DNA of 64,000 nt from contig CAYRUB010000002.1 of NCBI GenBank assembly GCA_964427405.1, forward strand, positions 68,741-132,740, written 5' to 3'. The stretch is from an uncultured Planctomycetales bacterium (lineage in GTDB: Bacteria > Omnitrophota > Gorgyraeia > Gygaellales > Profunditerraquicolaceae). A program made the translations under genes and the position numbers. Below the pieces are notes generated by a model that ran no database searches, was not told where the DNA came from, and worked only from the letters and a program-made list of their open reading frames with translations. Below are positions 6,199 to 59,525 of the stretch, one piece after another. How positions within the stretch are numbered: position 1 is the first letter of the stretch; every line of letters begins with the position of its first letter.

Positions 6199-6216
6199 AG
6201 AGGCAGGAAGGTATTG

Positions 6217-7104: not shown

Positions 7105-8707
7105 CGTAATTGAGTTCACTTTTTGCCACAAGCTCTTTGGCCAACCGGTCCATAAGGGGTTCTTCTTTTTTGAGTAATGCGGTTACTTCGATAAGGCAGG
7201 TATTTAATATGTCCTGGACGTCGGCATCAAGCTTGCCCTTAACATCTTCGGAGATCTTATCAACAATCTCCCAGTTGCCTAAAAATCCGCTTTTACCCAT
7301 GCCGCAGACCCAGACCATATTGTGGGCATGATGCATGGCACTGGAAAAATCTCCATATACGCCGGAGGTTGTCGCATTGTACTTGATTTTTTCTGCAGCG
7401 TACGAACCTAAACTAATCTTTATTTTGCTGAGTAGCTCATTAGAATCTTCAATAAAAGTATCTTCTCTTTCCGGAATCCAGGTTGCTCCACCAGTGGGGC
7501 CGCGCGGGGTGATCGTTATTTTAAAAACATCCTTAGAGGGGGCAAGCAGGTAAGTGGTAATGGCATGTCCGCTTTCATGGTAGGCGGTCTGCCATTTTTC
7601 TTTTTCACTTAATTTAATTCTGCGTTTTATACCTAAGGCGATTCTTTCCCGCGCTTCATCAATTTCTTTCATGGAAACTGATGAGTTTTGATTGCGTACG
7701 GTAATTAGGGCTGCCTCTCGTACTATATTGGCAATATCCGCCGGGCTTTGACCTACGGTAATGCGTGCGAGCCGGTCGATCTTTACATCTTGCGCATCAT
7801 ATTTTACACTTTTTAGGTAATAGGCAAAGAGCTTACCGCGATCCTCCAGATTGGGTTTATCTACGATGATCTTGCGGTCAAACCTTCCCGGTCTAAGCAG
7901 GGCCTGATCAAGGTAAGTTTCAGGCGCATTGGTTGCGCCGATTAAAATAATATTATAATCTTTATCTTTTAGGCCATCCAGTTCAACCAGCAACTGATTC
8001 AGGGTAGTATTATGCTCAGTAGTCCCGCCGAAACCGCGATCCATGGAACGTTGCGCGCCTATGGCATCAATTTCATCAATAAAAATGATGCAGCCGCCTT
8101 CAAGTTCCGCCAGTTGTTGTGCCCTTTTAAATAAAGAACGTACCCTTCCGGCTCCTACGCCGACAAACATCTCTACAAATTCCGAACCCGACATGGAGAT
8201 AAAAGGAAGCTTGGTTTCTGTAGCGATTGCTTTAGCCAGGTAAGTCTTACCGCATCCCGGGGGGCCGAGCATAAGGATGCCTTTTAAAATTTTTCCTCCT
8301 ATACGCTGAAGGCTCACACGGTCGGTGATCAATTTAACTACTTCCAGGGCTTCTTGTTTGGCTTCATCCATCCCGATCACATCATCCCAGGTAACACCTA
8401 CATCTCCCCCGGAAATAGATTTCTTGCTGGTTTGAGAAAATGATGAGGCCCCGCGTTTAAAATAGAGCCAATACATCAGGTATGTGTATACAAAGCCGAA
8501 GATAAGGGCCATAATAATCTGTAGGTATAGCTGCAGGGGAATCATGGCTAGCTGGGATTGTCTTAAATAAGATTCAGATTCATTCCAGGCACGCAGGCCG
8601 GTAATAACGAGGAATCCTAGAGATATGGCCAGTGCAGCTAAAAAAGTAAAAAGGAGGACTTTTAACCAGTGTAGCTTTGCATAGAACCTGATTTTTTTCC
8701 AATTCAT
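7058..8707 (-). CDS. ftsH: FtsH-like AAA+ zinc metalloprotease with a short periplasmic loop
   Basis: Walker A GPPGCGKT, Walker B IIFIDEIDA, an SRH region, and zinc site HESGHA. Two N-terminal TM helices are separated by only ~20 aa. Start at the second Met (8707) has the SD GGGAGA upstream. Confidence 0.85.
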   Translation of the reverse strand: MNWKKIRFYAKLHWLKVLLFTFLAALAISLGFLVITGLRAWNESESYLRQSQLAMIPLQLYLQIIMALIFGFVYTYLMYWLYFKRGASSFSQTSKKSISGGDVGVTWDDVIGMDEAKQEALEVVKLITDRVSLQRIGGKILKGILMLGPPGCGKTYLAKAIATETKLPFISMSGSEFVEMFVGVGAGRVRSLFKRAQQLAELEGGCIIFIDEIDAIGAQRSMDRGFGGTTEHNTTLNQLLVELDGLKDKDYNIILIGATNAPETYLDQALLRPGRFDRKIIVDKPNLEDRGKLFAYYLKSVKYDAQDVKIDRLARITVGQSPADIANIVREAALITVRNQNSSVSMKEIDEARERIALGIKRRIKLSEKEKWQTAYHESGHAITTYLLAPSKDVFKITITPRGPTGGATWIPEREDTFIEDSNELLSKIKISLGSYAAEKIKYNATTSGVYGDFSSAMHHAHNMVWVCGMGKSGFLGNWEIVDKISEDVKGKLDADVQDILNTCLIEVTALLKKEEPLMDRLAKELVAKSELNYDEIEAIFKEFGKSRP

Positions 8708-8797
8708 AATTTCTCCCGTCTGCCGCTGACTAAGCATGTGAAATACAACATATAAAAAATAACATATCTGTTATCTTAAGTCAAACCTTTTCTTCCC

Positions 8798-8825
8798 TTG
8801 ACTTGATAATTTTTGCGTGTATAAT
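8798..8825 (+). promoter_or_regulatory. Sigma70-type promoter for eno
   Basis: TTGACT (8798-8803), 16-nt spacer, TATAAT (8820-8825), ~40 nt upstream of the eno ATG. The SD AAGGGAGA follows. Confidence 0.55.
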
Positions 8826-8830
8826 TATGA

Positions 8831-10132
<1,302 letters not shown>

Positions 10133-10414
10133 ATGCTCTCTACGTTAAGAAAGGCCTTTTGGCTTTTTGGTTTTACGGTTTTGCTTTTAATCTTATTCCT
10201 GCCGGGTTATATAAAATTGCAGGGATTAAGAGCGAAGAACCGTCAGTTAGAGGATAGTTTTCGTAAGATGGCCGTTGAAAATTATCTTTTGCAACAAGAG
10301 CTTAAGCGGGTTGATAATGACCCGGTTTATCAGGAGAAGATGGCTCGGGATAAGATGGGGGTAGTGAGAAAAGGCGAGATCCCGATTAAGATTTTCTCGG
10401 ATAAGAAGAGATAG
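10133..10414 (+). CDS. ftsB: Septum formation initiator (FtsB/DivIC family)
   Basis: 93 aa with one TM helix followed by a coiled coil, plus the conserved eno-ftsB synteny. Confidence 0.7.
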   Translation: MLSTLRKAFWLFGFTVLLLILFLPGYIKLQGLRAKNRQLEDSFRKMAVENYLLQQELKRVDNDPVYQEKMARDKMGVVRKGEIPIKIFSDKKR

Positions 10415-10445
10415 CTGGTTTTAATATCATAGGTAGGTAATCAAT

Positions 10446-10551
10446 ATCCCCGCAGTTAATCGCTTCGCAAATTCTTCACAGAATTTGTTCGCAACTGCAG
10501 GGATTAATTCGCACATTGACTTATGTTTACTCCGTTCCATAAGCCAAGTGC
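10446..10551. repeat. Intergenic hairpin cluster (member of the dispersed hairpin family)
   Basis: Outer imperfect stem TCCCCGCAGTT (10447-57) / AACTGCAGGGA (10493-503), enclosing CAAATTC-ttcaca-GAATTTG. A second hairpin is GCAC-a-TTGACTTATG (10511-25) / CATAAGCCAA-GTGC (10538-51). Both mismatches become G-U pairs on the minus strand, where the loop reads GAACGGAGTAAA. Confidence 0.6.
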
Positions 10552-10561
10552 TCATTAATTT

Positions 10562-10635
10562 CGCGGGGTGGAGCAGCCTGGTAGCTCGCAAGGCTCATAA
10601 CCTTGAGGTCATGCGTTCAAATCGCATCCCCGCAA
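10562..10635 (+). tRNA. Initiator tRNA-Met (CAT)
   Basis: Hand-folded cloverleaf that is near-identical in its 5' half to E. coli tRNA-fMet (CGCGGGGTGGAGCAGCCTGGTAGCTCG). It has the C1xA72 mismatch, anticodon loop CTCATAA and T-loop TTCAAAT. No encoded CCA. Confidence 0.9.
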
Positions 10636-10679
10636 TTGAACATACACCTGTACCGTTAGATGCACATATTGTGTAAAAT

Positions 10680-10702
10680 CCCGTGAGCGTAAGCGAAACG
10701 GG
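10680..10702 (+). repeat. Small hairpin of the GAGC-loop family
   Basis: CCCGT-gagcgtaagcgaa-ACGGG. The 13-nt loop closely resembles the loop at 35891-35903 (gagcgacagtgaa). Confidence 0.45.
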
Positions 10703-10715
10703 GTCAATACAAACA

Positions 10716-10759
10716 AGGCTAGGATGAGCAGTTATGCAAATCCTGGCTTTTTTGTTTTT
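10716..10759 (+). terminator. Rho-independent terminator after tRNA-fMet
   Basis: Stem AGGCTAGGAT / ATCCTGGCTT (two G-U pairs), loop gagcagttatgcaa, followed by TTTTTTGTTTTT. Confidence 0.55.
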
Positions 10760-10910
10760 CTATCCCAGTCAGCTCCATTCTGCCCCCTGTTATGGTTACG
10801 GGTTTTTTCTCCCCATTAAATTGCTTACCATTCTGAAATGGAAGTGATATAATTAGGAAACAGTTTGGTAAAATCGTTAATTTTTGATATAAGAAATAGA
10901 TGAATAAAAA

Positions 10911-12272
10911 ATGATGAAGAAAATATCTTACTTTATTTTTATTTTTTGCCTGTTATTTATATCAGCTTGCCAGCGCGAAGGAAAAAGGGGGTACGCGCCT
11001 CCGGCTGTAATTCCTAACACAACAAGAGAGATGAAAAGCCCCGGTTTTTGGATAAGCCGGAATTCTTTCGCAGATAAAGTGGTTTTGGATTCTTCAGCTA
11101 TCGCTTTGTTTAACTCAGAAGTAGAATGTAAGCTTGGGCTTACGGAGGATGTTGCTAAAATTGGCCCGAGTTATTCAGGGGAAGAATTAAGCTCTTTTTT
11201 AGAAAAAGAACTTAAGGGGCTTTTTTTAAATAAACTTTTCGATAAAAATGCAAAGAGAATAAACAACTCTTTTTACCGGGCAATCAGGGAAGAAATTAAT
11301 TTTAGCGCTATACCGGTTGAAATTAATGTGCGTTACGGTTTTATCAGGCATTATGCTGACCAGAGGATTTTGCCAACTGAGGAGGCCTTATTTAGTCAGC
11401 CGGGTGATGTTGAATTTGACGAGCTTCAAAATAGTTCTTTGGATATCGGGACACCTTTAGCAGTTTTACATGAAAGTAAAGACGGTTTATGGATATATGC
11501 GCATTCTCCGGCAAGCCCAGGCTGGGTAAGAAAAGACAGGGTTGTTATTTGTACTTTTGCTGAGCTTAAGAGTTATTTAGAAAAAGAGCCCTTTGTTGTA
11601 GTGACTAATACTAAGGCCGATATTTTCTTAGATCCGGGTTTAACACAATATTTTGATTATGTCAGGATGGGAGTGAGGTTTCCCGTAAAGAAAGATATTA
11701 ATTCTGGAGTAATCCAGATTTCTATCCCTTTTCAAGTAGATGGAGGCAAGTTTAATAAGCGCAATGCCTATATGAGAAAAGAGGATATAAATTCAGGCTA
11801 TTTACTGTATACTCCTCGCAATATTATTCAGCAGGCCTTTAAGCTTCTCAATGCTCCTTATGGCTGGGGAGGCATGAATGGCGAACAGGATTGCTCTAGC
11901 TTTCTCCAGGAGATTTTTTCCACCGTTGGTATATATTTACCAAGGAATTCTCAGGCTCAATGTAAAGTAGGAAAGCAATTAGGGTCATTTACTGAAAAAA
12001 CAAACAGCGCATCAAAACTGCTTATTCTGGATAAATTAGCTATCGGTGGAGCTACGATTTTACAGTTAAAAGGACACGTGCTTTTATATCTTGGGTCATA
12101 TAAAGGTTCTCCTTACGTGATACATGAAACTCATGGCTATAGGCAAAAAAAAGGGTGGAAAGATATCTTGTGCGCAGTAAATCGCGTAGTAGTAAGCGAT
12201 CTTTCTTTGGGGCAAGGGTCAAAAAATGGTTCTTTGCTTGAAAGATTGCTATCTATTTGTAACGTTAATTAA
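10911..12272 (+). CDS. NlpC/P60 (C40) cell-wall peptidase lipoprotein with SH3-like N-terminal region
   Basis: Lipobox LFISAC. The C-terminal domain has APYGWGGMNGEQDCSSFLQEIF (catalytic Cys) and the later GHVLLYLG...IHETHG His residues. Confidence 0.75.
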   Translation: MMKKISYFIFIFCLLFISACQREGKRGYAPPAVIPNTTREMKSPGFWISRNSFADKVVLDSSAIALFNSEVECKLGLTEDVAKIGPSYSGEELSSFLEKELKGLFLNKLFDKNAKRINNSFYRAIREEINFSAIPVEINVRYGFIRHYADQRILPTEEALFSQPGDVEFDELQNSSLDIGTPLAVLHESKDGLWIYAHSPASPGWVRKDRVVICTFAELKSYLEKEPFVVVTNTKADIFLDPGLTQYFDYVRMGVRFPVKKDINSGVIQISIPFQVDGGKFNKRNAYMRKEDINSGYLLYTPRNIIQQAFKLLNAPYGWGGMNGEQDCSSFLQEIFSTVGIYLPRNSQAQCKVGKQLGSFTEKTNSASKLLILDKLAIGGATILQLKGHVLLYLGSYKGSPYVIHETHGYRQKKGWKDILCAVNRVVVSDLSLGQGSKNGSLLERLLSICNVN

Positions 12273-13106: not shown

Positions 13107-13571
13107 GTGGGAGGTATATTGAAGTGGAAATTTAAGAGGATTGCTGTCCGTCTGCTTAGGCTGAATAATTCTCCCCAGGAGATTGCCTTGGGAGTTGCCA
13201 TAGGCGTTTTTATTGGTATCTTACCGGTTTATGGGTTGCATACCGTATTGGTAGTTATCGCTGCTATTCTGGTCCGTCCGGCAAATAAGATCGCGATTTT
13301 CCTGGGAACCAGTATTTCTTTACCTCCGACAGTCCCTCCCATAACCTGGGCAGGCTATGAAATTGGCAGGTGTATCTTAAATGGAAAATTTGAACCTTTA
13401 AGCTGGTCAGTATTTAAGAATATAACATTCCAGAAGATTTGTAGTTATTATCAGCCGCTTTTTTTAGGTAGCGTAGTACTGGGGATTATCTGCGCGGTAA
13501 TCTTTTACTTCATTACCTTTTTCATAGTAAAGAGGATTAACCTTAAGGCAAAACGTGTCCGGAGAACTTAA
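13107..13571 (+). CDS. DUF2062-family membrane protein
   Basis: SPQEIALGVAIGVFIGILPVYGLHTVLV matches the DUF2062 signature as I remember it. Three or four TM helices. Confidence 0.6.
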   Translation: MGGILKWKFKRIAVRLLRLNNSPQEIALGVAIGVFIGILPVYGLHTVLVVIAAILVRPANKIAIFLGTSISLPPTVPPITWAGYEIGRCILNGKFEPLSWSVFKNITFQKICSYYQPLFLGSVVLGIICAVIFYFITFFIVKRINLKAKRVRRT

Positions 13572-14217
13572 CGTAAATATCAGGAAGTTTGAAAATAGGG
13601 ATAGAGGCAAGCTCAGGTCAATCAGCCATGATACTGCTTTTATGGGGCAGCCGGCTTCTCTATTTTTTGAAGGCAGAGAAATTATTTGCGATGCCCTTAA
13701 CTCATATTTTACTGATTATGAACCGGAGTCTTGTTTTGTCGCGGAGGTTAATTCGACAGTCGTTGGTTACTTGATTGGCGCAAAAAACAAAATTGCCGCA
13801 GAAAAAGTTTTTCAAGATAAGATAATGTTACGTTTATTTTGGAGGGCGCTAAAAAGCGGCGTTTTTATTAAAAAAAAGAATATTGTCTTTATTTTTAGTT
13901 GTTTGACGGCGTTTCTTAAGGGCGGCTTTTCCACTCCTGATTTTACAAAAGAATACCCAGCCACTTTTCATATCAACATAAAAAACGAATTCCGTGGCCA
14001 AAATATCGGCACGGCCTTAATAAACGCTTACCTGAGTTACCTGAAAGAAAAACTGGTCTCTGGCGTGCATTTAGCGACAATGTCCCGGGCCGGAGCAGAT
14101 TTTTTCTTTAAACAATCATTCCGGTTGCTCTATGAAGGAAAAAGGTCTTATTTTAAACATATTCTGCGCAAAGATGTTCCGCTTTATATTTACGGTAAGA
14201 AATTAGTAAGTTTATAG
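13555..14217 (+). CDS. GNAT-family N-acetyltransferase
   Basis: 220 aa. FHINIKNEFRGQNIGTALINAYL fits the acetyl-CoA-binding motif A (R/QxxGxG/A). GTG start overlaps the upstream gene. Confidence 0.65.
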   Translation: MSGELNVNIRKFENRDRGKLRSISHDTAFMGQPASLFFEGREIICDALNSYFTDYEPESCFVAEVNSTVVGYLIGAKNKIAAEKVFQDKIMLRLFWRALKSGVFIKKKNIVFIFSCLTAFLKGGFSTPDFTKEYPATFHINIKNEFRGQNIGTALINAYLSYLKEKLVSGVHLATMSRAGADFFFKQSFRLLYEGKRSYFKHILRKDVPLYIYGKKLVSL

Positions 14218-14262: not shown

Positions 14263-16926
14263 ATGGATAAAACTTTATATAGCTTTACGGATAATTCAGG
14301 AAGTTTTTATTCGGGCTGCGCAGATAAAATCAAGAGCCTGTATTTGCCTCTGGGCAATGATAGCATTATGTCTTCTATCACTCCTGATTTGCATGGGGAT
14401 ATCAAGAGCGGACAAAACTCTTTTCTTTTGGCCCCGGTTTCGCGCATTGATTTAACCAACTTGCGCTCTTCGCGCAACTTCTGGATTTATATTAACCCGC
14501 GTAAAGTATGGTCAGCTACCGGTGTCTCCAAAGATTCCAAACAGATAGGCCAGGATAAATTTAGCTTAGAGGCTGGTTTACTTTGGCAGAAGATAAACCG
14601 TCGGAATAAAACAATAGGTATTAATGCAGAGATCCTTTCTTTTGTGCCGGCTACGGGTGAGCCGGTTGAAATAATGCAAGTCAGGCTTACCAATATTTCC
14701 CGTAACTTAATAAGTTTTATCCCCACAGCGGCTATTCCTATGTATAGCCGCGGCGCCAATAATATACGCGATCATCGCCACGTAACCAGTTTGTTGCAGC
14801 GTGTTAGCTTGCATAAATTTGGGGTAATCTCTAAACCGACATTGGCTTTTGATGAATCCGGCCACCGGAGGAATAAAGATAGCTATTTTGTTTTAAGCTG
14901 GGATGAAAAACTTTCTCCTCCTGAGAGGATCTATCCGACACAGGAGGTTTTTTGTGGAGACTCAGGTGACCTGGAAGAACCAGAGGCGGTATTTAAAAAC
15001 ATCCCTGAGCGGTTAAATAATATTCAGGGCAAGGAGGTCATGGGGGGTTTAAGTTTTAAGAGAGTTTCTCTTAAAACTGGGCAGTCAAAGATATATACGG
15101 TGGCTATGGGGATAGTTCAGGATGCCGGGCAAATTACAAAATTAATTTCTAAATTTAATCATCCGGATAAAATTTCGCATGCCTTGCAAAAAACTAGAAT
15201 ATTCTGGGGAAGCTTGAGTCAGGGGATAAATATTACAACACAGGATAGAGATTTTGATAACTGGTTGCGCTGGGTAAATGCCCAACCGACATTAAGAAGA
15301 ATTTTCGGGTGTTCATTTCTGCCGGATTTTGATTACGGAAAAGGCGGGCGTGGATGGCGCGACCTATGGCAGGATTGCCTGGGGCTAATCCTTAATGAAC
15401 CTGAAAAAGTCAGGCCGTTTTTAGTTAATAATTTCTGCGGAGTAAAGATTGACGGCTCCAATGCTACTATCATCGGAAAGGAGCCCGGAGAATTTATTGC
15501 CGACCGTAACAATATCAGCCGGGTATGGATGGATCATGGTATCTGGCCGCTTTTAACCCTGGATTTATATATTAACGAAACCGGTGACCTGGGTATTTTG
15601 TTTGAGTCGGCAACTTATTTTTACAATCATGAAATAAAACGTACCAAAGATATTGATTATAACTGGACACCTGCTTACGGGAATAAGCTAAAGACTAATT
15701 CCGGAAGGATATATTCAGGTTCTGTTTTAGAGCATCTTTTAGTGCAAAATCTGGTACAGTTCCTTAATGTCGGCAGCCACAATCATATCCGTCTTGAAGG
15801 TGCTGATTGGAATGACGGCCTGGATATGGCAAGGGAAAACGGAGAAAGCGTAGCTTTTAGCGCTATGTACGCGCAAAATCTGGAAACACTTGCTGAACTT
15901 TTGCTTAAAACCGGGAAAAACAAAATAGAGGTTTTCGATGAGATCAAAATATTATTTACTAAGATTAATTACAAAAGCATTCCTTCTAAGCGTAAACTTT
16001 TAGGTAAATATTTTTCTAAAATTTCTACTGTTGTGTCCGGAAAAAAGATCCTTTTAGATGTCGCGCAGATAGCCGCAGATCTTAGGGGTAAGTCTGTTTG
16101 GATGAAACAACACATCCGTGCCTCAGAATGGCTTAAGGAAGGGTTTTTTAATGGTTATTATGATAACCGTAAGAAGCGCCTGGAGGGTAGAAAAGGAAAT
16201 CGTGTGCAAATGACCCTGACTGCCCAGGTTTTTAACGTAATGGCCGGCATTGCCCGGCCTTGGCAGGTGCGCAAAATCCTACAAAGTGTAAATAAATATC
16301 TGTTTGATAAACAAAACCGCAGCATTCATCTTAATACCGATTTTAAACAAGAGCAGCTTGATTTGGGCAGGGCTTTTTCTTTTTCTTATGGGGAAAAGGA
16401 GAATGGGGCAATTTTTAGCCATATGGCAGTGATGTTTAGTTATGCGTTATATAAACAAGGCTATGCTCAAGAGGCCTGGGAAACTTTAAGCTCACTTTAT
16501 AAAATGGCAGTGAATACTTCCAGGAGTAAAGTTTATCCTTGTCTGCCGGAATACTTTAATCTGGAAGGCCGGGGGATGTATTCTTATTTGACCGGTTCAG
16601 CCAGCTGGTTTATGTTAACTATGCTTACCCAGGTTTTTGGAGTCAGGGGGCAGGGCGGAGATTTGGTAATTGAGCCAAAATTAAACGCAGAGCATTTTCG
16701 TAAAAGCAACAGCATAAGCATTGAGCGTATTTTTGCCGGCAGAAGGATAAAAATAAAGTTTATAAATTGCGGAAAGCTTGTTTACGGAAAGTATAAGATT
16801 GCTAAGGTTTTGTTTAATTCAGAAAATCTGCTTGTTGATAAATCCCGCTATTTGATCATTACCCGCCAGGTAATCCTTGCCCTACCGAACAAAAAGTTAA
16901 ATTTAATCGAAGTTCATCTGCGTTAA
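14263..16926 (+). CDS. Large glycoside hydrolase/phosphorylase-like protein (GH94-type (alpha/alpha)6 catalytic-domain signature)
   Basis: 887 aa. RLEGADWNDGLDMA resembles the catalytic DWND segment of GH94-like phosphorylases. Size and predicted beta-sandwich-plus-barrel layout are compatible. The family call is tentative. Confidence 0.45.
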   Translation: MDKTLYSFTDNSGSFYSGCADKIKSLYLPLGNDSIMSSITPDLHGDIKSGQNSFLLAPVSRIDLTNLRSSRNFWIYINPRKVWSATGVSKDSKQIGQDKFSLEAGLLWQKINRRNKTIGINAEILSFVPATGEPVEIMQVRLTNISRNLISFIPTAAIPMYSRGANNIRDHRHVTSLLQRVSLHKFGVISKPTLAFDESGHRRNKDSYFVLSWDEKLSPPERIYPTQEVFCGDSGDLEEPEAVFKNIPERLNNIQGKEVMGGLSFKRVSLKTGQSKIYTVAMGIVQDAGQITKLISKFNHPDKISHALQKTRIFWGSLSQGINITTQDRDFDNWLRWVNAQPTLRRIFGCSFLPDFDYGKGGRGWRDLWQDCLGLILNEPEKVRPFLVNNFCGVKIDGSNATIIGKEPGEFIADRNNISRVWMDHGIWPLLTLDLYINETGDLGILFESATYFYNHEIKRTKDIDYNWTPAYGNKLKTNSGRIYSGSVLEHLLVQNLVQFLNVGSHNHIRLEGADWNDGLDMARENGESVAFSAMYAQNLETLAELLLKTGKNKIEVFDEIKILFTKINYKSIPSKRKLLGKYFSKISTVVSGKKILLDVAQIAADLRGKSVWMKQHIRASEWLKEGFFNGYYDNRKKRLEGRKGNRVQMTLTAQVFNVMAGIARPWQVRKILQSVNKYLFDKQNRSIHLNTDFKQEQLDLGRAFSFSYGEKENGAIFSHMAVMFSYALYKQGYAQEAWETLSSLYKMAVNTSRSKVYPCLPEYFNLEGRGMYSYLTGSASWFMLTMLTQVFGVRGQGGDLVIEPKLNAEHFRKSNSISIERIFAGRRIKIKFINCGKLVYGKYKIAKVLFNSENLLVDKSRYLIITRQVILALPNKKLNLIEVHLR

Positions 16927-17448
16927 TTCCTGCGTTTTTGTGCAGACAAAAAGCTGATTAAATCCAAGCATAAAGGTTTGATAGGTTTCAATCTGGAAAA
17001 GGCCTTTCAGCAAGTTATGCATAGAATTTAGATTGTAATATCTTTGGTGCGGGCCTTCTGTCGTTTCGTAATGGGGATGATATATCTTCATCAGCCACTT
17101 TCCCGCTGACTTCGGGGTAGTTATAATTAATTTACCGTCAGCTTTGATTATACGGTGGCATTCTTTGATAATCTTTTCCGGGCAGCTCAGATGTTCTATG
17201 CAGGCCAGCATTGTTATGCAGTCAATGCTATTGTCTTGCGCAGGGATTGTATCAACCAGGACTTGTCCAGTTTGCCGGTCAAATCCTATGCGGGTCCGGC
17301 AGGGGGATTTTTTTAATAAGTACTTATCGAGCCCGCATCCGATATCAATATGGATTTCTGCGCGGGGAATATAAGGCAAGGCTTTGCGCGTCCTTATTTC
17401 TCTGGTAAGCCAGGTGAAGATATTTAATAATTTTTTATGATTGCCCAT
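16903..17448 (-). CDS. Class I SAM-dependent methyltransferase
   Basis: 181 aa with motif I IDIGCG, the later ACIEHL, and DGKLIITTP. Last gene of the minus-strand operon. Its 3' end converges on and overlaps the 14263-16926 gene by 24 nt. Confidence 0.7.
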   Translation of the reverse strand: MGNHKKLLNIFTWLTREIRTRKALPYIPRAEIHIDIGCGLDKYLLKKSPCRTRIGFDRQTGQVLVDTIPAQDNSIDCITMLACIEHLSCPEKIIKECHRIIKADGKLIITTPKSAGKWLMKIYHPHYETTEGPHQRYYNLNSMHNLLKGLFQIETYQTFMLGFNQLFVCTKTQELTQMNFD

Positions 17449-18806
17449 AATCCCTTGAAATCATTTTTAAGTTCAGCAAAGTTTAAATGCCGCAATCTTT
17501 TTGCGATATACGCCGGCCTTAAATAAAATGACCGGGTGGAGTTTTTTATTAAGACAGACAATTCTTTAACTGACATTTTTGTGGTATTCAGCCTGAGTTG
17601 TTCGTATGCGAATGAATAAGGTTGGCCGTTGATGAACCAGTCATTGCGCAGGGCCTCATCATATAGGCAGGAGCCGGGGAACGCGGTAAGGTATGCGCAG
17701 TTAAGATAATCCGGGTCTAATTGTTTTATAAATGCTAAAGTCTGGCGGGCGGTTTCTTTGGTTTCCCCGGGCGCGCCAAAAATAATATTTAAGGTTACCT
17801 GGATCCCTGCTTTCTTTGTTGCCTGGACAGCTCTGGTTGCCTGCTCTAATGTAAAATCCTTTTTAAGATTATTCAGAATTTCCTGGTTGCCTGATTCTAG
17901 CCCATAGGTAATCATTTTGCAGCCAGCCTGCTTCATTAATAAGGCGATTTCTTCGTTGATCATGTCTACCCGTCCATTACAGGACCAGATAAGATTAAAC
18001 CTTTTCTCGATTAAAAGCTTACATAGCGCAATCACATTTTTTTTGTCGATCAAAAAGTCGCTATCTTTAAAAAGAATCTCCTTGATTTTGAATTCTTTGA
18101 CTAACCTGGAGATTTCTGAAATAGTTTTTTGCGGAGACTGCACCCTGTAAACTTTTCCGAACATTTTCTGCACGCCGCAGAAAATACAGTTAAAGGGGCA
18201 CCCGCGGCTGCGGATAAAAGTAACATAAGGTGAGCGCGTTGAGACCATGCTGTTATAACGCGCGATAGGAAGTAAGCCGTAGGCAGGCAAGGGGATAGTG
18301 TCGAGATCCGGTATCAATTCTCTTTTCGGGTTTACAATTATCCGGCCGTTTTTCCTAAACACCAGCCCTTTGATTAAACTGTAATCCTTATCTCTTGATT
18401 CATATGTCTTTAACCATTCAAGAAAAGTGATTTCTCCTTCTCCTGCTACTATTGCATCAAAATTAGTGTCCTTAATCACATCAAGGGGCTGAACTGTAGG
18501 ATGATATCCTCCTGCAATGATAGTAACGTGGGGGAGGACTGTTTTTACAAATCCGGCAGTGTAGTGCGCACTGTCTGATAACAGGCTGGTGAAGCTTATG
18601 CCTACTACGTCGGGTTGAAATTCACGAAGCAGCATGCGCAATGATTGAAAAGGCTTTTTTTCAACGTTAGCATCGAATATGAGCACATTGTGCCCTTGCT
18701 CTAAAGTGACAGCGCTGACAAATGCTATCCCTAGCGGAGGGTATTTTAATCCCTGTTGGATTTTAAGATTGACATTTACCGGAGGGTGTATAAATAATAT
18801 TTTCAT
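17424..18806 (-). CDS. B12-binding-domain radical SAM enzyme (class B)
   Basis: 460 aa. N-terminal cobalamin-binding-like Rossmann region (DVVGISFTS), then the CPFNCIFC (CxxxCxxC) radical SAM cluster motif. Confidence 0.8.
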   Translation of the reverse strand: MKILFIHPPVNVNLKIQQGLKYPPLGIAFVSAVTLEQGHNVLIFDANVEKKPFQSLRMLLREFQPDVVGISFTSLLSDSAHYTAGFVKTVLPHVTIIAGGYHPTVQPLDVIKDTNFDAIVAGEGEITFLEWLKTYESRDKDYSLIKGLVFRKNGRIIVNPKRELIPDLDTIPLPAYGLLPIARYNSMVSTRSPYVTFIRSRGCPFNCIFCGVQKMFGKVYRVQSPQKTISEISRLVKEFKIKEILFKDSDFLIDKKNVIALCKLLIEKRFNLIWSCNGRVDMINEEIALLMKQAGCKMITYGLESGNQEILNNLKKDFTLEQATRAVQATKKAGIQVTLNIIFGAPGETKETARQTLAFIKQLDPDYLNCAYLTAFPGSCLYDEALRNDWFINGQPYSFAYEQLRLNTTKMSVKELSVLIKNSTRSFYLRPAYIAKRLRHLNFAELKNDFKGLWAIIKNY

Positions 18807-18812
18807 AGTCGG

Positions 18813-20228
18813 CTAATGGTTCAGCAGCGTGCTTGCCATATGAACTTGTCTGATCAACTGGGAGACGCTTTTAATTTTAGTTAGTTTACGCATCATGAAT
18901 TTCGGCCGCATGTAGAATTTTTTATTTGTTTCCCGGATAATCTGATCGACCCTTTGTTCAGGCAATTCTTTTGAGGAGAGGCAAGGCGCAGTATTAGTAA
19001 TTTCTCCTGCAAGAAATTTCTCCCAATAATCTGCCGGAATAAGTTTTTGCGAGGCTGCCCAATCAAAGAGTTCGCTTCCCGGTATAAGTATTGTTTTACT
19101 GAGTACCGCAAAATCCGGTTCTATAGCAAATATTAGCGCAATGGTTTTTTTAATAGTCTTTTCGGTTTCTTCGGGGCAGCCGAACATGAAATAGCCGTAG
19201 ATTTCAATACCTGATTCTTTAACAAGGCGGGCGCATTCCAGGGACTGCTTTACGGTAATTCCTTTTTTCAGGATTCTTAATATCGCCTCGTCCCCTGATT
19301 CAAACCCAAAACGGATACGGTAGCAGCCAGATTTTTTCATTATTGCAAGAAGCTCCCGGTCAACCATGTCAACCCGGCTGCGGCACTCCCATATAATTTT
19401 GAGGTTTTTTTCAAGGATTAGATTACAGAATTCAATGGTGCGCCTGCGGTCTATGATAAATTCATCGTCAAAAAACATTATCTCTTTTATGCCATAGTGG
19501 TCTTTTAATTCTCGCATTTCTTCTATAATTCTGCGATTCGAAAAAGAGCGCCATTTATTTCCCATGCGGTTACGCCTGTCGCAATAAATACAACTGTAAG
19601 GGCAGCCCCGGCTGGTGATCATAGTTGCGCATGTGCGTTTTCTCGATAAGGCATCATAATAACGATTAAGCTTTACCAGGTGCCTGGCAGGGTTTGGGAT
19701 AGAATCCAGCGTTTCAATCAAAGGCCTTTGTCCGTTCAAAAATAACTGCTGTTTTTTTCGGTAAATAATTCCAGGTATTTTGCTTGTGTCGCCTTTAAAG
19801 CCAAGTGTCCGCATAAGCTCAATAGTTGTTTTTTCACCTTCGCCAATCACTCCATAATCAAACACGCTGTATTCCATTACCGGCTCGGGTGCTGAAGTGA
19901 TTGCCGCTCCGCCTGCAACTACGCATATAGAAGGAAGGGTATTCTTTGCAAGTTTTGCGATTTCATTAGCCTGGTGAAAAGTCCATGTCATTACGTGGAT
20001 GCACAAGATCTCCGGCTTAAGGCGTAAAAGGGAATGCAGGATCTTGTTTTGAGGATCAGTTTCAATATCAATATCGATTACTTCGACATGGTGGCCTTCT
20101 TGCTCTAATACTGCAGCGATGTAGAGTAACCCTAACGAAGGATAAATTCCCCGGGCTTTTTCAATCCTGTTGTTATAATGCCCCACCTGTTCTCGGGTGA
20201 GGCTTGGGTTGATAAGCAGAATGTTCAT
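18813..20228 (-). CDS. B12-binding-domain radical SAM enzyme (class B), paralog
   Basis: 471 aa with the same architecture as its neighbour and cluster motif CPYSCIYC. Confidence 0.8.
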   Translation of the reverse strand: MNILLINPSLTREQVGHYNNRIEKARGIYPSLGLLYIAAVLEQEGHHVEVIDIDIETDPQNKILHSLLRLKPEILCIHVMTWTFHQANEIAKLAKNTLPSICVVAGGAAITSAPEPVMEYSVFDYGVIGEGEKTTIELMRTLGFKGDTSKIPGIIYRKKQQLFLNGQRPLIETLDSIPNPARHLVKLNRYYDALSRKRTCATMITSRGCPYSCIYCDRRNRMGNKWRSFSNRRIIEEMRELKDHYGIKEIMFFDDEFIIDRRRTIEFCNLILEKNLKIIWECRSRVDMVDRELLAIMKKSGCYRIRFGFESGDEAILRILKKGITVKQSLECARLVKESGIEIYGYFMFGCPEETEKTIKKTIALIFAIEPDFAVLSKTILIPGSELFDWAASQKLIPADYWEKFLAGEITNTAPCLSSKELPEQRVDQIIRETNKKFYMRPKFMMRKLTKIKSVSQLIRQVHMASTLLNH

Positions 20229-20242
20229 ATAAAGAGTTTTGT

Positions 20243-21139
20243 TTAGTGTTTTGTTCCCATCATATCAGCAAGCATTCCGAATAGTATGATTTGAATGCCG
20301 CCAATAACCAGGATTGAAATAGTGGCATCGCCAAAGAATCCCTCCCCGGCCAGCATAATTTTAATCCCCAGCGCAACTCCTGCTGCAATTAAAAAGATCC
20401 CCAGGGGGAGGAATACTTTTAGCGGATTGGCGTAGAAAAAGAAGCGGATTATGGTTGGTACCACCTTGATGGGATAGCGCCAGGAAATAAATGATTTTCC
20501 CGTTTCTCTTTTATAAAATACTACGGGAGTTTCAATAATGCGCATGTGCTTGCTGCTTGCATCCATAATTAATTGTTGCGTCTCATTGTAATCTGAGATC
20601 ATTTCAAAATCTTTAAGATAGCGTTTGCTGAAAGCCATAAGCCCTGTCTGGGCATCGGTTATTTTAAAGCCGGTAAGTTTGCTTACCAGATAGCTGAAAA
20701 ATCGATTACCCATTGTGCGATAAAAAGGCATGGTATATTTTAATCCACCGCTAAAGCGGCTGCCGAAGACACAATCTGCTTTGTCTTCAAGTATGGGCTG
20801 TATAAGCTTATCGATGTCATCAGGGTCATGCTGGAAATCAGCGTCGATTTTAACCGCAACATCGGCGCCCATTTCATAAGCCCTTTGCAGGCCGATGCGC
20901 GTAGCGGCGCCTAACCCCCGGTTTTTAATATGCGAGATTATTTTGTTTACTCCGGCCTCTTTGGCAACTTTTGCGGTGTTGTCAGAGGAGCCGTCATCCA
21001 CTACGATAATCTCAACCCAATAGTTTTTATTTTGGGCAATATAATTTTCCTGTATTTTCTTAATAACATTTGCTATTGACGCCTCTTCATTATGTGCGGG
21101 TATCATAATAACTACGTAAGGGTATCTTTCTAATGTCAT
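20243..21139 (-). CDS. GT2 glycosyltransferase of the polyprenyl-phosphate sugar synthase type (DPM1/ArnC/GtrB-like)
   Basis: IPAHNEE, VVDDGSSDNT and DADFQHDP (DxD) motifs. Two C-terminal TM helices, as in ArnC/GtrB-type enzymes. Confidence 0.75.
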   Translation of the reverse strand: MTLERYPYVVIMIPAHNEEASIANVIKKIQENYIAQNKNYWVEIIVVDDGSSDNTAKVAKEAGVNKIISHIKNRGLGAATRIGLQRAYEMGADVAVKIDADFQHDPDDIDKLIQPILEDKADCVFGSRFSGGLKYTMPFYRTMGNRFFSYLVSKLTGFKITDAQTGLMAFSKRYLKDFEMISDYNETQQLIMDASSKHMRIIETPVVFYKRETGKSFISWRYPIKVVPTIIRFFFYANPLKVFLPLGIFLIAAGVALGIKIMLAGEGFFGDATISILVIGGIQIILFGMLADMMGTKH

Positions 21140-22278
21140 ATTATTGTCCTTTCCTTTAGCCTGTGTAATAGCTTGCCAACCGAATTGACCATATAATCTA
21201 ACTCTTTCTTTGTCAGCCCGGGATACATAGGTAAGGTTACAATGGAATCAGCCACGCGTTCAGTCACCGGTAAATCATGGATCAGGTATTTGTATCTTTC
21301 CGCATAGTATTTTTGTAAATGCACGGGGGGAGTAAAATGCACTGAGGCCATAATTCCTTTTTTCCTCAAACCCAGAACAAAATCCCTCCTTACGACTTTT
21401 TTAACTTTGATGGTGTACATCTGGTAGACATGCCGGCACTCTTTTAACTCTACGGGAAGATCTATTTCATCAAAGCTTAATTTTTTATTCAAGTAGGCAG
21501 CATGTTCTCTGCGTCGTGCATTCATGGCATCAAGTTTTTTCAATTGTTCAACGCCAATGGCCGCTAAAATACTGCTCATCCTGAAATTGTACCCGGCGTA
21601 ACTGGCTTCTCTGAACCATGGTTCTTGTGAATGTTGGCGTTCATACGTGCTTTTTTTAATGCCGTGGCCGGCCAGGACCTTTACTTTATCGGCGAGTTTA
21701 TGATTATTCGTAGTAAGCATCCCGCCTTCACCGGTAGTGATATTTTTTGTGGGGTAAAATGAAAAACATCCCGTAGAAAAGCTGCCGGTTTTTTGTTTCT
21801 TGTAAGTTCCGCCAATGGTCTCAGCGGAATCTTCAATGATCTTTAAGTTATGCCGGCCGGCAAGTTTAGTAATTTTATCCATAGGGCATGCCTGTCCTGC
21901 GTAGTGCACGACCATTATTGCCTGGGTGCGGGGAGTAATCTTGCGTGCGATGTCAATGGGATCAATATTGCAGGTGCCGTATTCTATATCTGCAAACACC
22001 GGTGTCGCCCCGGCTCTTACTACAGCGTTTGCGGAGGCAACAAAGGTAAAACTGGGCAGAATCACCTCGCCCGTGATTTCCGAAGCTTCTATTGCCAGTT
22101 GCAGCGCCGCGGTGCAGGAATTCAAAGTCAGGGCTCTTTTTACTCCGATATATTTTGCAAATGCTTCTTCAAATTCTGTGTTCATCGGGCCGTCAGTAAG
22201 CCACCCCGATTTTAACACCTTCTCAATTGCCCGGGATTCCTTTGAATTAAAATTATTTTTGCAAAGCCGGATTTTCAT
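21136..22278 (-). CDS. DegT/DnrJ/EryC1/StrS-family sugar aminotransferase
   Basis: 380 aa. SFYPTKNITTGEGG contains the PLP-binding Lys. 4-nt overlaps with both neighbours. Confidence 0.85.
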   Translation of the reverse strand: MKIRLCKNNFNSKESRAIEKVLKSGWLTDGPMNTEFEEAFAKYIGVKRALTLNSCTAALQLAIEASEITGEVILPSFTFVASANAVVRAGATPVFADIEYGTCNIDPIDIARKITPRTQAIMVVHYAGQACPMDKITKLAGRHNLKIIEDSAETIGGTYKKQKTGSFSTGCFSFYPTKNITTGEGGMLTTNNHKLADKVKVLAGHGIKKSTYERQHSQEPWFREASYAGYNFRMSSILAAIGVEQLKKLDAMNARRREHAAYLNKKLSFDEIDLPVELKECRHVYQMYTIKVKKVVRRDFVLGLRKKGIMASVHFTPPVHLQKYYAERYKYLIHDLPVTERVADSIVTLPMYPGLTKKELDYMVNSVGKLLHRLKERTII

Positions 22279-23267
22279 TCTGTGCCGGGCTCATTCTTGT
22301 TAAAACCGTTTTCCAGGATAAAATCAATATACTCGTTAATCCCTCTTTCAATATCATAAACTGGTTCATACCCCAGGATTTTCTTAGCCTTTGTGTTATC
22401 CAGGGCGCCTCTTTTTGGCCTGCGTTCATCCGAAGGCTTTATTTGAATACTTAGCCCGGGGATCCTTTTTTTAATAGCTTCTGCGAATTCTTTGACGCTT
22501 CTGCCTTCTCCTCTGGTTATATTAAATGTTTCATTCTTGGCGTTATCGGAAAGGGCGGCTAGCACAAACCCATGGGCGGTGTCTTTGACATAGGTAAAAT
22601 CAATTCTTTCCTGGCCGCCATCGTGTAAGGTAAGCGGCTTTCCGGAAAGGGCGGCATTGATAAGGATTTGCGTTACCCTGCGGTTTGCATCGGTGGGGCC
22701 GTACACCGCGGAAGGCCTGATAATAGTGTAATCCATGCCGAACTTTTTGCCAAAAGCAGCGGTGAGAATTTCTCCTGAAAGTTTTGTTCCTCCGTAAATA
22801 TCAATAGGGCGGCTGGGGTGATTTTCGTCCGCGGGCTCATAATCAAAATCGCCGTAAATAAAACTGGATGAAGTGAAAATAAACCTTTTGACTGAAGTCG
22901 CCTGTCTCAAGCATTCAAGAATAGTCACTGTACCGTTGAGGTTAATTTGGATTGCTTCTTCAGAAAACTGATTTGATGCTTTGTGAATGGGGATGGCAGC
23001 CAGATGGATGACCAGGTCAGGCGCGGTTTCCTTAAGGGCCTTAGCCAGGCATCCCCTGTTGCGTATATCGCCTCGTATCAGACAGGTTTTATTCTTTAAG
23101 TCATTTAAACGGTATCTTAGGTATGTCGCATATGAACTTTCCAGCGGCGGGATGTAATTTAAGAAGGCGTCGTATAAAATGACTTCAACATTATGCTCAA
23201 GGAGTTCCTTGGTGATGTGATACCCCAGGAAGCCGGCTCCGCCAGTGATCAGAATTTTTTTTGTCAT
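22275..23267 (-). CDS. NAD-dependent nucleotide-sugar epimerase/dehydratase (extended SDR)
   Basis: ILITGGAGFLGYH (GxxGxxG) and YGGTKLSGE (YxxxK). First gene of the operon. Confidence 0.85.
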   Translation of the reverse strand: MTKKILITGGAGFLGYHITKELLEHNVEVILYDAFLNYIPPLESSYATYLRYRLNDLKNKTCLIRGDIRNRGCLAKALKETAPDLVIHLAAIPIHKASNQFSEEAIQINLNGTVTILECLRQATSVKRFIFTSSSFIYGDFDYEPADENHPSRPIDIYGGTKLSGEILTAAFGKKFGMDYTIIRPSAVYGPTDANRRVTQILINAALSGKPLTLHDGGQERIDFTYVKDTAHGFVLAALSDNAKNETFNITRGEGRSVKEFAEAIKKRIPGLSIQIKPSDERRPKRGALDNTKAKKILGYEPVYDIERGINEYIDFILENGFNKNEPGTE

Positions 23268-23311
23268 TATGTTTGTGGTTCCGAGTATTAGTTTAGACGG
23301 ATATTGTTTTT

Positions 23312-23340
23312 ATTATATTATAAATAAATAGCGTATGCAA
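23312..23340 (-). promoter_or_regulatory. Sigma70-type promoter for the minus-strand sugar operon
   Basis: On the minus strand: TTGCAT (23340-23335), 17-nt spacer, TATAAT (23317-23312), ~45 nt upstream of the 23267 start. Confidence 0.5.
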
Positions 23341-23405
23341 AGCATTTTAGCCCCAGATTTATTCTTGCAATTGTTTATTTATGATATAATTAAAACAAAT
23401 AAATT

Positions 23406-25247
23406 ATGATGAAAAATTTAGAAAATCGTACACTTTTTTTTATACCATTCGCCGCGTTGCTCTTGTTTTTTCTGGGAATAACCATCTATTCCAATATTTT
23501 GAAAAGCCCCTTTCAGTTTGATGATATTGGGTTTATCGTTGAGAATCGCAGCATAAGGGATATTTCAAATCTGCCTTTAATCTGGAAATTCCTGCCTACC
23601 CGTTTCATGGATTTCTTTTCCTTGGCTTTAAATTACCATTTTGCTAAATTGGATGTTTTTAGCTATCACCTATTTAATTTATTCTTACACCTTGCGGTAT
23701 CAACGCTGGTTTTTTGGTTTGTGCGGCTTATTTTTTCTACTCCAATTATGAAAGAAGAGCGGCTGGCGCGGTTCAAAGGAGAGATCGCCTTATTTATCAG
23801 CCTCATATTTTTAGTTCACCCCATTCAAACAGAATCAGTGACTTATATACATCAACGTTCAACCTGCCTTGCCGGGCTGTTTTATTTATCTTCTCTTTGT
23901 TTATATGTAACTGCCAGATTATGGGGGATAGGCGGGAAGTTGCGCATCCAAAGGCGCATTTTATATATCTTAGCTTATATAGTTGCCCTAGCTGGCATGT
24001 TTACCCGGGAGAATACGATTACCTTACCCTTAGCCATACTTTTATTTGAATTTTATTTTTTTAGGACAGACAAACAAATAAAATGGCAACCGGCGGCCCC
24101 TTTTTTAATCACCTTGCCCATTATCCCGGTTACCATGTTTTTGTCTAAACCCATCACTTTATTGCATATCCAGAAATTGGCCGATGCTCCTATAAAAGGC
24201 TGGTATTATTTCTTAACACAACTAAATGTAAAAATTACCTACTTAAGGTTATTCTTTTATCCTCTAAAACAAAATTTTGATTATGACTATCCAGTATCCA
24301 GGAGCCTGTTTGAGTTACCGACTTTAATCAGCCTGATCGCGTTAATACTGGTTTTGGTTATCGCTGTAAAAATATTCCGCAGATACAAAATATTATCTTT
24401 TGCCATCTTTTGGTTTTTTCTGACATTATTACCGGAGTCGAGTTTTATTCCCCAGCCTGATGTTATATTTGAACACCGGCTTTATTTACCGTTAGTCGGC
24501 CTTTGCATTTTTTCTGTTTGTGTTATGTATTATATTTTTTCCGCAAGAAATAGAAGGCTCTTGGTTATTTTACTAGGTATAATTGTGATATTTTCTTCTG
24601 TTTTAACATTTAAGAGAAATATCATCTGGAGGGATGAAATCTCTTTATGGAATGACACAATCAGTAAGTCTCCCGATAAAGCACGCCCCTATAATGAACG
24701 CGGTAATGCTTATGCTGCCAAGGGCAATTATGCCCAAGCTATCGCGGATTTTAATAAGGCCATTGAAATTGATTCAAAGATGCATTTTAGCGTTAAGAAC
24801 CCCCTGCATTCATATCCTATCAGCGCCAGGATCTATTATAATCGCGCAAATGTATATCAAAAGATGGGCAATCCCGGACAGGCTTTATCCGACTATAACC
24901 GCTCTATTGAAATAAATAGTATTAATCCCAGGGCGTATAATAACCGGGCAACTATTTATGCGATGAAAAATGAGTATGATCAAGCTGTTCTTGATCTCGG
25001 CCAGGCGATAAAAAGTGATCCCAACTTTATTTTGGCATATTCCAACCGGGCAGCGCTATATATGGAGAGGCATAAATACCCGGAAGCAATCTCTGATTTT
25101 TCTAAGGCCGTACAAATTGACCCTAATTTTACCGAGGCATATTATGGCAGGGCAGTTGCTTATCTGAATATGGATAATCTTCAGCAGGCAAGCCTGGATT
25201 TTGAAAAAGTCAAGCGGCTCGAGTCTAGCGCGGGGGTAAAAAGATAG
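23406..25247 (+). CDS. GT-C-fold membrane glycosyltransferase with C-terminal TPR array (TMTC/PMT-like)
   Basis: 613 aa. After TM1 comes [16 protein letters not shown], the acidic first-loop motif of PMT/TMTC-type GT-C enzymes. About 11 TM helices, then at least five TPR units (YNERGNAY..., YNNRATIY..., YSNRAALY...). Confidence 0.65.
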
Positions 25248-59453: not shown

Positions 59454-59525
59454 AGTATAAAAAATAATAGAAACGGTCATATTGCTCGTTACTGGAAACA
59501 ATAAGGAAGATTGAAAGGTAGAAGT

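Follow-up and report, generated by a model that had tools for sequence, protein, structure and literature searches.

The stretch of DNA analyzed here, called the window below, is a 64-kb segment (64,000 nucleotides) of contig CAYRUB010000002.1 from an uncultured bacterium of the Omnitrophota. It harbors a minus-strand operon of six genes, called the cassette below, which faces a divergently transcribed gene for a 613-amino-acid (aa) membrane protein. The operon is transcribed in the order SDR, DegT, GT2, rSAM-A, rSAM-B, MT. Its first gene (22275-23267, 330 aa) codes for an extended short-chain dehydrogenase/reductase (SDR) resembling nucleotide-sugar 4-epimerases, and the second (21136-22278, 380 aa) for a sugar aminotransferase of the DegT/ArnB type that depends on pyridoxal phosphate (PLP). 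They are followed by a family 2 glycosyltransferase (GT2; 20243-21139, 298 aa) of the polyprenyl-phosphate type, similar to DPMS, ArnC and GtrB, with a C-terminal membrane anchor of two helices. The next two genes code for radical S-adenosylmethionine (rSAM) enzymes with B12-binding domains, namely, rSAM-A (18813-20228, 471 aa), the invariant radical enzyme of the cassette, and its paralogue rSAM-B (17424-18806, 460 aa), an optional member. A small class I methyltransferase using S-adenosylmethionine (MT; 16903-17448, 181 aa), which is specific to the Omnitrophota version of the cassette, is encoded by the final gene. On the plus strand, the divergent gene (23406-25247) encodes the 613-aa protein, which we call GT-C-TPR. 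Its membrane domain of the GT-C glycosyltransferase fold has about 11 transmembrane (TM) helices and no Pfam coverage (23406-24665), and its C-terminal part is an array of tetratricopeptide repeats (TPRs) predicted to be periplasmic (24666-25247). A preliminary description made from the sequence had placed these seven genes and their domains at the same coordinates; the open reading frames (ORFs) match exactly, and Pfam and NCBIfam agree with the domain assignments.

The genes of the operon are closely packed. The SDR/DegT and DegT/GT2 junctions are overlaps of 4 nt each, and gaps of 14 nt and 6 nt separate GT2 from rSAM-A and rSAM-A from rSAM-B, respectively. At these four junctions the spacing is as previously reported, i.e., 4-nt overlaps or gaps of at most 14 nt. 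The report does not hold for the last junction, where the stop of rSAM-B and MT overlap by 25 nt, the ATG at 17448 being the only start codon available to MT. MT also overlaps the 3′ end of a convergent gene, coding for a GH94-like protein, by 24 nt. The operon is separated from the GT-C-TPR gene by an AT-rich intergenic region of 138 bp (23268-23405). Promoter-like hexamer pairs were found there on the minus strand (23341-23312, TTTGCA-18-TATAAT, 10 of 12 positions) and on the plus strand (23292-23321 and 23381-23410), all of them as consensus matches only.

We searched genome and metagenome collections with a profile of rSAM-A and obtained 90 loci, including those from earlier look-ups. Every six-frame ORF of the 90 loci was scored against the window proteins and against additional neighbors taken from annotated loci. 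Loci were considered distant when their rSAM-A was 43 to 60% identical to that of the window; they were dereplicated at 90%, and only those with enough flanking sequence were counted. An exact-sequence look-up of rSAM-A gave no match. Metagenome contig L027 is 99% identical to the window, and close homologues carry the label Candidatus Omnitrophota. The hosts of the distant loci are other Omnitrophota and Patescibacteria (Portnoy-, Zambryskii- and Buchananbacteria and metagenome-assembled genomes labeled Saccharibacteria).

The gene order SDR-DegT-GT2-(rSAM-B)-rSAM-A was kept across the distant loci. GT2 was found in 21 of 23, usually directly upstream of rSAM-A, DegT in 16 of 17, and an orthologue of the SDR in 13 of 14. 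A gene for a flippase-like LPG_synthase_TM protein was present in 14 of 18 loci and one for a PMT_2-like GT-C of 515 to 575 aa in 12 of 15. rSAM-B orthologues, 37 to 58% identical to the window protein, occurred in 11 of 16 loci at varying positions, and the window-type MT in 2 of 16. Orthologues of this MT (53 to 62% identity) were found in the Omnitrophota loci L026, L034 and L093, which retain all six genes including the small MT at rSAM-A identities of 53 to 64%. In its place, Patescibacteria carry another methyltransferase (6/16 distant loci) and/or a GNAT (3/16). rSAM-A is strictly conserved in the distant loci, in the manner of a core enzyme, and MT, GNAT and rSAM-B vary. Cassettes with Pfam annotation are exemplified by L024, L025, L026 and L093. 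As the same gene order recurs across phyla, the arrangement goes far beyond chance, and fortuitous co-location of the six genes was ruled out. The data support the view that the six genes form a functional unit, whose core of SDR, DegT, GT2 and B12-rSAM is common to Omnitrophota and Patescibacteria. The synteny of the rSAM and sugar genes in relatives, which the preliminary description had named as a decisive point, holds across both phyla.

Several loci show variations on this organization. In L094 (766-7101; rSAM-A 65% identical), a B12-rSAM, GT2 and rSAM-A are present, and SDR and DegT are missing. The cassette is followed there by a gene for a 798-aa fusion with amino-oxidase, GLF and NeuB/SAF domains, located beside a Y1 transposase gene, which suggests a variant cassette with a different sugar chemistry. 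In the Zambryskiibacteriota locus L024, a second sugar block (17297-21431) codes for a B12-rSAM, a DegT, a methyltransferase, a UDP-glucose/GDP-mannose dehydrogenase and an SDR. Genes for a GT2, a B12-rSAM and two PMT/PMT_2 proteins lie upstream of it, indicating that one small genome can hold several rSAM-containing glycosylation modules. In L093, three co-directional genes without Pfam match (7517-10980) follow the six-gene cassette. Two polytopic proteins (430 and 509 aa, 9 to 11 hydrophobic segments) encoded directly after MT are candidates for a further pair of flippase and transferase, of a kind not yet described. In L056 (approximately 6200-9000), the rSAM-A orthologue is split into two adjacent ORFs (78 and 81% identical), probably by a frameshift or an assembly error.

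GT2 matches Glycos_transf_2 of Pfam, and the solved structures to which its sequence is closest are all those of polyprenyl-phosphate glycosyltransferases, namely, DPMS (5mlz; 1.4e-18), ArnC (9hwj, 9bhc, 8vxh) and GtrB (5ekp), with alignments that span residues 9 to 295, including the membrane anchor. Its two C-terminal hydrophobic helices lie at approximately residues 228 to 250 and 262 to 285, and the motifs DDGS and DADxQ[H/N][D/P]P are conserved in 35 orthologues. The extent of these matches and the two helices are in line with the polyprenyl-phosphate type assigned to it in the preliminary description. The best NCBIfam models, AglJ, PpgS, PgfS and ArnC, all score below their cut-offs. DegT matches Pfam DegT_DnrJ_EryC1 with 399 bits, and its best solved relative is ArnB (1mdo, 236 bits). 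The NCBIfam models for PseC (328 bits) and ArnB (280 bits) are both below cut-off, and the PLP lysine, in the motif PTKN, is conserved in 33 orthologues. MT matches Methyltransf_23 and Methyltransf_11 of Pfam, and its matches in the PDB are generic methyltransferases only.

The SDR matches Epimerase of Pfam with 179 bits, and its best solved relatives are the UDP-glucuronic acid 4-epimerase 6zl6, the GalE protein 4zrm, Pal and UXS1. In enzymes of this superfamily, 4,6-dehydratases have the motif Thr-Asp-Glu, and the decarboxylases UXS and ArnA have Thr-Ser-Glu with a catalytic Glu. The 29 orthologues of the SDR instead share SSS[F/M][V/I]YG followed by YGxTK (SSSFIYG and YGGTK in the window protein), with Phe or Met at the position of the dehydratase/decarboxylase Glu and hence no catalytic Glu. 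An ArnA-like or RmlB-like role was ruled out by this active-site motif. The SDR looks like an epimerase, in which case the supply of keto sugar for DegT would not be accounted for within the cassette.

These features define how far the cassette parallels the Arn pathway, as had been suggested. As in Arn, an aminotransferase is encoded with a GT2 predicted to act on undecaprenyl phosphate and a GT-C predicted to act outside, and ArnB and ArnC are among the best relatives of DegT and GT2; this part of the parallel stands. Given that the SDR orthogroup lacks the catalytic Glu, the parallel fails at its first step. Ser-Ser-Phe in the SDR contrasts with Thr-Ser-Glu plus an Arg in the ArnA decarboxylase, and the ArnA model of NCBIfam, with a cut-off of 777 bits, gives the SDR 51 bits. 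DegT and GT2 are homologous to ArnB and ArnC without being equivalogs (280 bits versus a cut-off of 631 and 73.5 versus 529, respectively), and the GT-C resembles ArnT in fold only. No formyltransferase (ArnA-N), deformylase (ArnD) or ArnE/F domains were found among the operon genes or the scanned flanking genes. Thus, the cassette is not a member of the Arn pathway.

For the membrane domain of GT-C-TPR (residues 1 to 420), no match was found in Pfam and no sequence match in the PDB. Its best structural matches are Pmt4 and Pmt2. The protein has 11 helices, with short loops rich in Lys and Arg at residues 109-118, 173-179, 220-228, 324-327 and 379-383; by the positive-inside rule, applied to the sequence, the N terminus would be inside and the TPR array outside. 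F38-D39-D40 are located in the first loop, and F36, D39, D40 and an EHRLYL motif are invariant among 38 homologues. The TPR array comprises five repeats (Pfam TPR_1, 143 bits) and matches the TPRs of OGT and TOM70. A GT-C fold with external TPRs is therefore supported, and the FDD motif in the first loop, the helices and the repeats are present as initially described.

TMTC proteins have a similar architecture, consisting of a multi-TM domain and TPRs (PMC7801869). Like PMT proteins and TMTC1-4, which are eukaryotic O-mannosyltransferases of the GT-C type with lumenal TPRs, GT-C-TPR shows a GT-C domain of about 11 TM helices, predicted extracytoplasmic TPRs and an acidic motif in the first loop. 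Unlike TMTC/GT105 proteins, it lacks DUF1736 (PF08409), the loop that joins TM7 to TM8 in TMTC. The window protein matched none of DUF1736, PMT and PMT_2, for DUF1736 even at E values up to 10, and these three are not among the 25 Pfam families most often matched by its 38 relatives. The donor would also differ, being a modified aminosugar here and mannose for TMTC. The GT-C-TPR family is very large, with more than 1,300 matches, some of which are labeled "protein O-mannosyl-transferase" by JGI. We do not regard GT-C-TPR as an orthologue of the GT-C of Patescibacteria (approximately 570 aa) or of the PMT_2 protein of L026, as hhalign comparisons of the membrane profile revealed no similarity (probabilities of 1.3 and 0.3%, respectively).

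rSAM-A and rSAM-B are full-length paralogues with 33% identity, and both contain CxxxCxxC. They match the B12-binding domain (PF02310, cut-off of 32 bits) with 82 and 66 bits and Radical_SAM (PF04055) with 91 and 88 bits, respectively. In NCBIfam, they score 222 and 200 bits with BchE, 215 and 188 with HpnJ (cut-off of 577), 128 and 115 with HpnR, and 93 and 91 with KedN5; the ranking runs from BchE and HpnJ through P-methylases, a ladderane enzyme, ApyD, BzaD and HpnR to AprD4. By sequence, the closest solved structure is AprD4, and the fold matches QCMT, TsrM, CysS and TokK. The presence of two paralogous class B rSAM enzymes, proposed in the preliminary description, was thus confirmed. The C-methylated aminosugar that it predicted from them was not supported: this product reflects a family prior only, with BchE and HpnJ as best models and a fold shared by AprD4 and QCMT.

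Enzymes of this class are known to act on sugars. GenK, GenD1, Fms7 and MoeK5 are C-methylases of pathways for the sugar-containing antibiotics gentamicin, fortimicin and moenomycin, and the sugar on which MoeK5 acts as a methylase belongs to a lipid-linked pathway, that of moenomycin (PMC9204698). HpnJ acts on lipid-linked glucosamine, providing a precedent for B12-rSAM chemistry on sugars (PMC13459092). The window enzymes share with GenK, GenD1/GntE, Fms7 and MoeK5 an N-terminal B12-binding domain and the CxxxCxxC core, aminosugar genes alongside, and paralogues in one cluster. Unlike those enzymes, which belong to antibiotic pathways of actinomycetes, they are found in an envelope-type module of uncultured Omnitrophota and Patescibacteria. 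They also differ from the HpnI/HpnK/HpnJ system, which converts hopanoid-linked glucosamine to a cyclitol ether: HpnJ scores are far under the cut-off, and the GT2 is of the polyprenyl-phosphate type, not of the HpnB/HpnI type. AprD4, the enzyme of aminoglycoside 3′-deoxygenation, does not bind cobalamin (PMC12931638), in contrast with the B12-binding domains present here.

Taken together, these features suggest that the cassette is a surface-glycosylation module of the three-component type, fused to its own aminosugar-tailoring branch. We assign this reading a probability of roughly 0.6. Three-component systems include GtrA/GtrB/GtrC, CsbB-GtcA-YfhO, GacI-GacK-GacL and mycobacterial PpgS-Rv3779. 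As in those systems, the GT2 of the cassette, which is homologous to GtrB, DPMS, ArnC and PpgS, has DXD motifs and a C-terminal anchor, and a transferase of the GT-C fold is encoded with it. The relay from GT2 to GT-C that had been proposed for this locus is borne out in other lineages, which encode a PMT_2 GT-C and a flippase-like gene beside the cassette. A dedicated flippase, the third component, was not found in the window and is represented by LPG_synthase_TM in the majority of distant loci already counted. Unlike in three-component systems, the cassette has its own SDR and aminotransferase branch and one to three B12-rSAMs. Its candidate flippase, LPG_synthase_TM, belongs to neither the GtrA nor the SMR type, and the GT-C family differs by lineage, being of the PMT_2 type in most and the Pfam-orphan, TPR-fused type in the window.

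From the domain identities, the GT-C fold and the cross-phylum synteny, we infer the following chemical steps and acceptor. In the cytoplasm, the epimerase-like SDR and DegT would turn a nucleotide sugar into a nucleotide aminosugar. GT2 would then load the sugar onto undecaprenyl (polyprenyl) phosphate on the cytoplasmic side of the membrane, by homology to DPMS, ArnC and GtrB. rSAM-A, which is always coupled to GT2, and the optional rSAM-B would modify the sugar by a radical reaction, in all likelihood by C-methylating unactivated carbons, and could do so on the nucleotide sugar or once the sugar is lipid-linked. MT, the small class I enzyme, may add an N- or O-methyl group, a position possibly filled in Patescibacteria by the other methyltransferase or the GNAT. 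The lipid-linked sugar would be flipped, in most lineages by the LPG_synthase_TM flippase-like protein, which is not encoded in the window lineage. Finally, a GT-C would move the sugar to an extracytoplasmic acceptor, and in the window lineage this enzyme is most likely GT-C-TPR.

The TPR array and the PMT-like fold suggest a protein acceptor. Lipid A, put forward earlier as a possible acceptor, was ruled out as one conserved along with the core module, because Patescibacteria have neither lipopolysaccharide nor lipid A and make up most carriers of the cassette core; in this diderm Omnitrophota organism it is possible. The lpx genes themselves were found as described at 40 to 44 kb of the window (LpxD, an LpxC-FabZ fusion, LpxA and an LpxI-like gene), preceded by genes for BamA and Skp. 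In L006 (11926-19764) and L091 (7086-7631), genes for GT-C-TPR homologues (55 and 48% identical) adjoin pilin-like N_methyl genes, which in L006 are followed by PilM/N and secretin genes. This gives a hint, to be taken as a lead only, that the family might glycosylate pilins or pseudopilins.

A number of observations weigh against our interpretation. The SDR lacks the residues with which a dehydratase or decarboxylase would release a keto sugar, and the first step is thus incomplete as proposed. rSAM-A and rSAM-B reach the cut-off of no curated NCBIfam family, methylase families included, their top two models, BchE and HpnJ, are non-methylases, and by fold they are as near to AprD4, a dehydratase independent of cobalamin, as to the methylase QCMT. 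Beside the cassette, GT-C-TPR is found only in a close collinear clade (rSAM-A at least 72% and GT-C-TPR at least 74% identical), in which the collinearity includes HisG and the GH94-like gene, and three sampled homologues, 48 to 50% identical, lie in unrelated contexts. Lastly, no homologue of LPG_synthase_TM was detected by search in the window, and no flippase candidate was seen among the scanned neighbors. The first of these points bear on the radical chemistry. On priors, C-methylation is the most probable reaction, although its chances fall a little short of even, and the epimerase-like SDR makes a radical dehydration or oxidation that feeds DegT a serious alternative. Instead of methylating, both rSAMs or just the invariant rSAM-A may catalyze an AprD4-like 1,2-diol dehydration or dehydrogenation, or a rearrangement of the lipid-linked sugar of the HpnJ or Cds type. 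In the AprD4-like version, the rSAM would create the keto group that DegT transaminates, which would explain why the SDR is epimerase-like only; its orthogroup is devoid of the catalytic Glu or Asp-Glu, so that no core enzyme obviously makes a keto sugar. The prominence of BchE and HpnJ among the matches and the core-like conservation of rSAM-A amid variable tailoring genes speak in the same direction, and HpnJ and Cds have been implicated in ring contraction of lipid-linked hexoses (PMC13459092). Nevertheless, the absence of cobalamin from AprD4 fits poorly with the strong B12-binding matches here, most characterized members of the class are methylases, and HpnJ, like BchE a non-methylase, co-clusters in a sequence similarity network with the methylases Fom3 and MoeK5, the latter acting on a sugar (PMC9204698). 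Moreover, several paralogous B12-rSAMs per cluster are typical of multiple methylations, a carbocyclic product would presumably not serve a GT-C as glycosyl donor, and a housekeeping dehydratase encoded elsewhere in the genome could supply the keto sugar. We consider a non-methylase rSAM-A less probable than not, although a substantial possibility.

The other points concern the transferase and the fate of the product. GT-C-TPR was present in all five loci of the window clade (rSAM-A at least 70% identical) and in none of 11 assessable distant loci, and thus the co-occurrence with the six-gene set that had been suggested as a check did not reveal a conserved partner. The PMT_2 GT-C (0/3) and LPG_synthase_TM (0/6) are missing from the window clade, and the distant loci show the reverse. 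Since the clade is collinear over the whole neighborhood, adjacency alone proves nothing. The 613-aa protein could be a mere neighbor that uses a common lipid-linked donor made elsewhere, as do TMTC/PMT-like paralogues, with the transferase and flippase of the cassette encoded elsewhere in the genome. Its absence from the distant cassettes, the size of its family, the unrelated contexts of the sampled homologues and the confinement of the adjacency to the collinear clade all fit such a neighbor, and the module is locally incomplete anyway, for want of the flippase-like gene. However, local encoding of a GT-C beside the cassette is the rule in distant loci, and the operon and GT-C-TPR diverge from one short intergenic region that has promoter-like sites in both directions. 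The 64 kb yielded no second GT-C, either in BLAST searches with the GT-C proteins of the loci or in Pfam scans, which covered about 19 of its 54 ORFs with 150 aa or more. In L006, the gene for the 55% homologue likewise comes after a block of genes, which code for GT2, GT-C, rSAM, B12-rSAM, a methyltransferase and LPG_synthase_TM. On balance we slightly favor GT-C-TPR as the transferase of the cassette, and the fortuitous neighbor is the weaker contender, albeit a credible one. GT-C-TPR most likely replaces the PMT_2-type GT-C of other lineages; as the two have no detectable sequence homology, the replacement would be non-orthologous. We regard it as improbable that the pathway ends in a membrane glycolipid or a small secondary metabolite, with the modified polyprenyl-phosphate-linked or other lipid-linked aminosugar made by GT2 staying in the membrane. 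HpnI/K/J and Cds make lipid head groups in a similar manner (PMC13459092), the window lineage lacks the flippase-like gene, and the L094 variant has other enzymes in lieu of SDR and DegT, yet a GT-C and a flippase-like gene adjoin the cassette in most loci, solved GT-C enzymes take lipid-linked donors at the outer face, and GT2 is nearer to AglJ, PpgS and ArnC than to the HpnB/HpnI types.

We found no description of an equivalent system in the literature searched. The proposed surface-glycosylation module is new in three respects: a B12-rSAM, with optional paralogues, is an obligatory part of an envelope-type system; this system occurs in both Omnitrophota and Patescibacteria; and one lineage probably uses a Pfam-orphan GT-C-TPR. 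A more specific, speculative proposal, to which we give a low likelihood, is that the rSAM-A step is obligatory in a polyprenyl-phosphate-linked aminosugar pathway of both phyla. It would yield a branched-chain, deoxygenated or rearranged aminosugar not known from any envelope glycan, placed on surface proteins, for instance pilins or S-layer proteins, of these ultra-small and often host-dependent bacteria by lineage-specific GT-Cs including the Pfam-orphan TMTC-like family, with rSAM-A possibly acting on the already lipid-linked sugar. Patescibacteria and Omnitrophota, many of them episymbionts, are abundant and for the most part uncultured, and their surface chemistry is nearly uncharted. 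That these reduced genomes have kept the four-gene core along with a GT-C and a flippase-like gene suggests a surface modification that is important to the cell and unusual in its chemistry. Should such a modification be confirmed, cobalamin rSAM chemistry, so far tied to antibiotics, cofactors and lipids, would enter primary envelope glycosylation, and the very large bacterial GT-C-TPR family of TMTC-like architecture would gain a first functional handle. Envelope biogenesis would also require cobalamin in these organisms, most of which are unable to make B12.

The GH94-like gene (14263-16926, plus strand, 887 aa), which converges on the operon, codes for a protein with catalytic and supersandwich domains of the GH94 superfamily (97 and 26 bits in Pfam, no NCBIfam match). 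It lies beside the cassette only in the window clade, with 67 to 97% identity. Upstream of it on the same strand, a gene for a DUF2062 membrane protein (13107-13571) overlaps by 17 nt a gene for a 220-aa GNAT (13555-14217), the latter unrelated to the small GNAT of the Patescibacteria cassettes. The pair is present in L001 to L003, and L004 has a phosphodiesterase-family gene instead. We ruled out the GH94-like gene and the DUF2062/GNAT pair as parts of the system, since they are confined to the collinear clade and the pair is missing in L004.

Further away, a 239-aa radical SAM protein is encoded directly after the lpx genes (44931-45650, plus strand), with weak MoaA-like and viperin-like matches (63 and 45 bits, far below cut-off). 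A large serine recombinase with Resolvase, Recombinase and Zn-ribbon domains (56887-58419, minus strand) is encoded next to an 850-aa N6/N4 DNA methylase (59511-62063, plus strand). The GC skew changes sign near the recombinase, with values of approximately −0.05 to 0 at 56 to 60 kb compared with +0.1 to +0.2 elsewhere, and this region may be an integrated mobile element. At 48118-50079 (plus strand), we noted an unusual fusion, in which a histidine kinase carries a PAS domain and, at its C terminus, a PilZ domain, which binds cyclic di-GMP.

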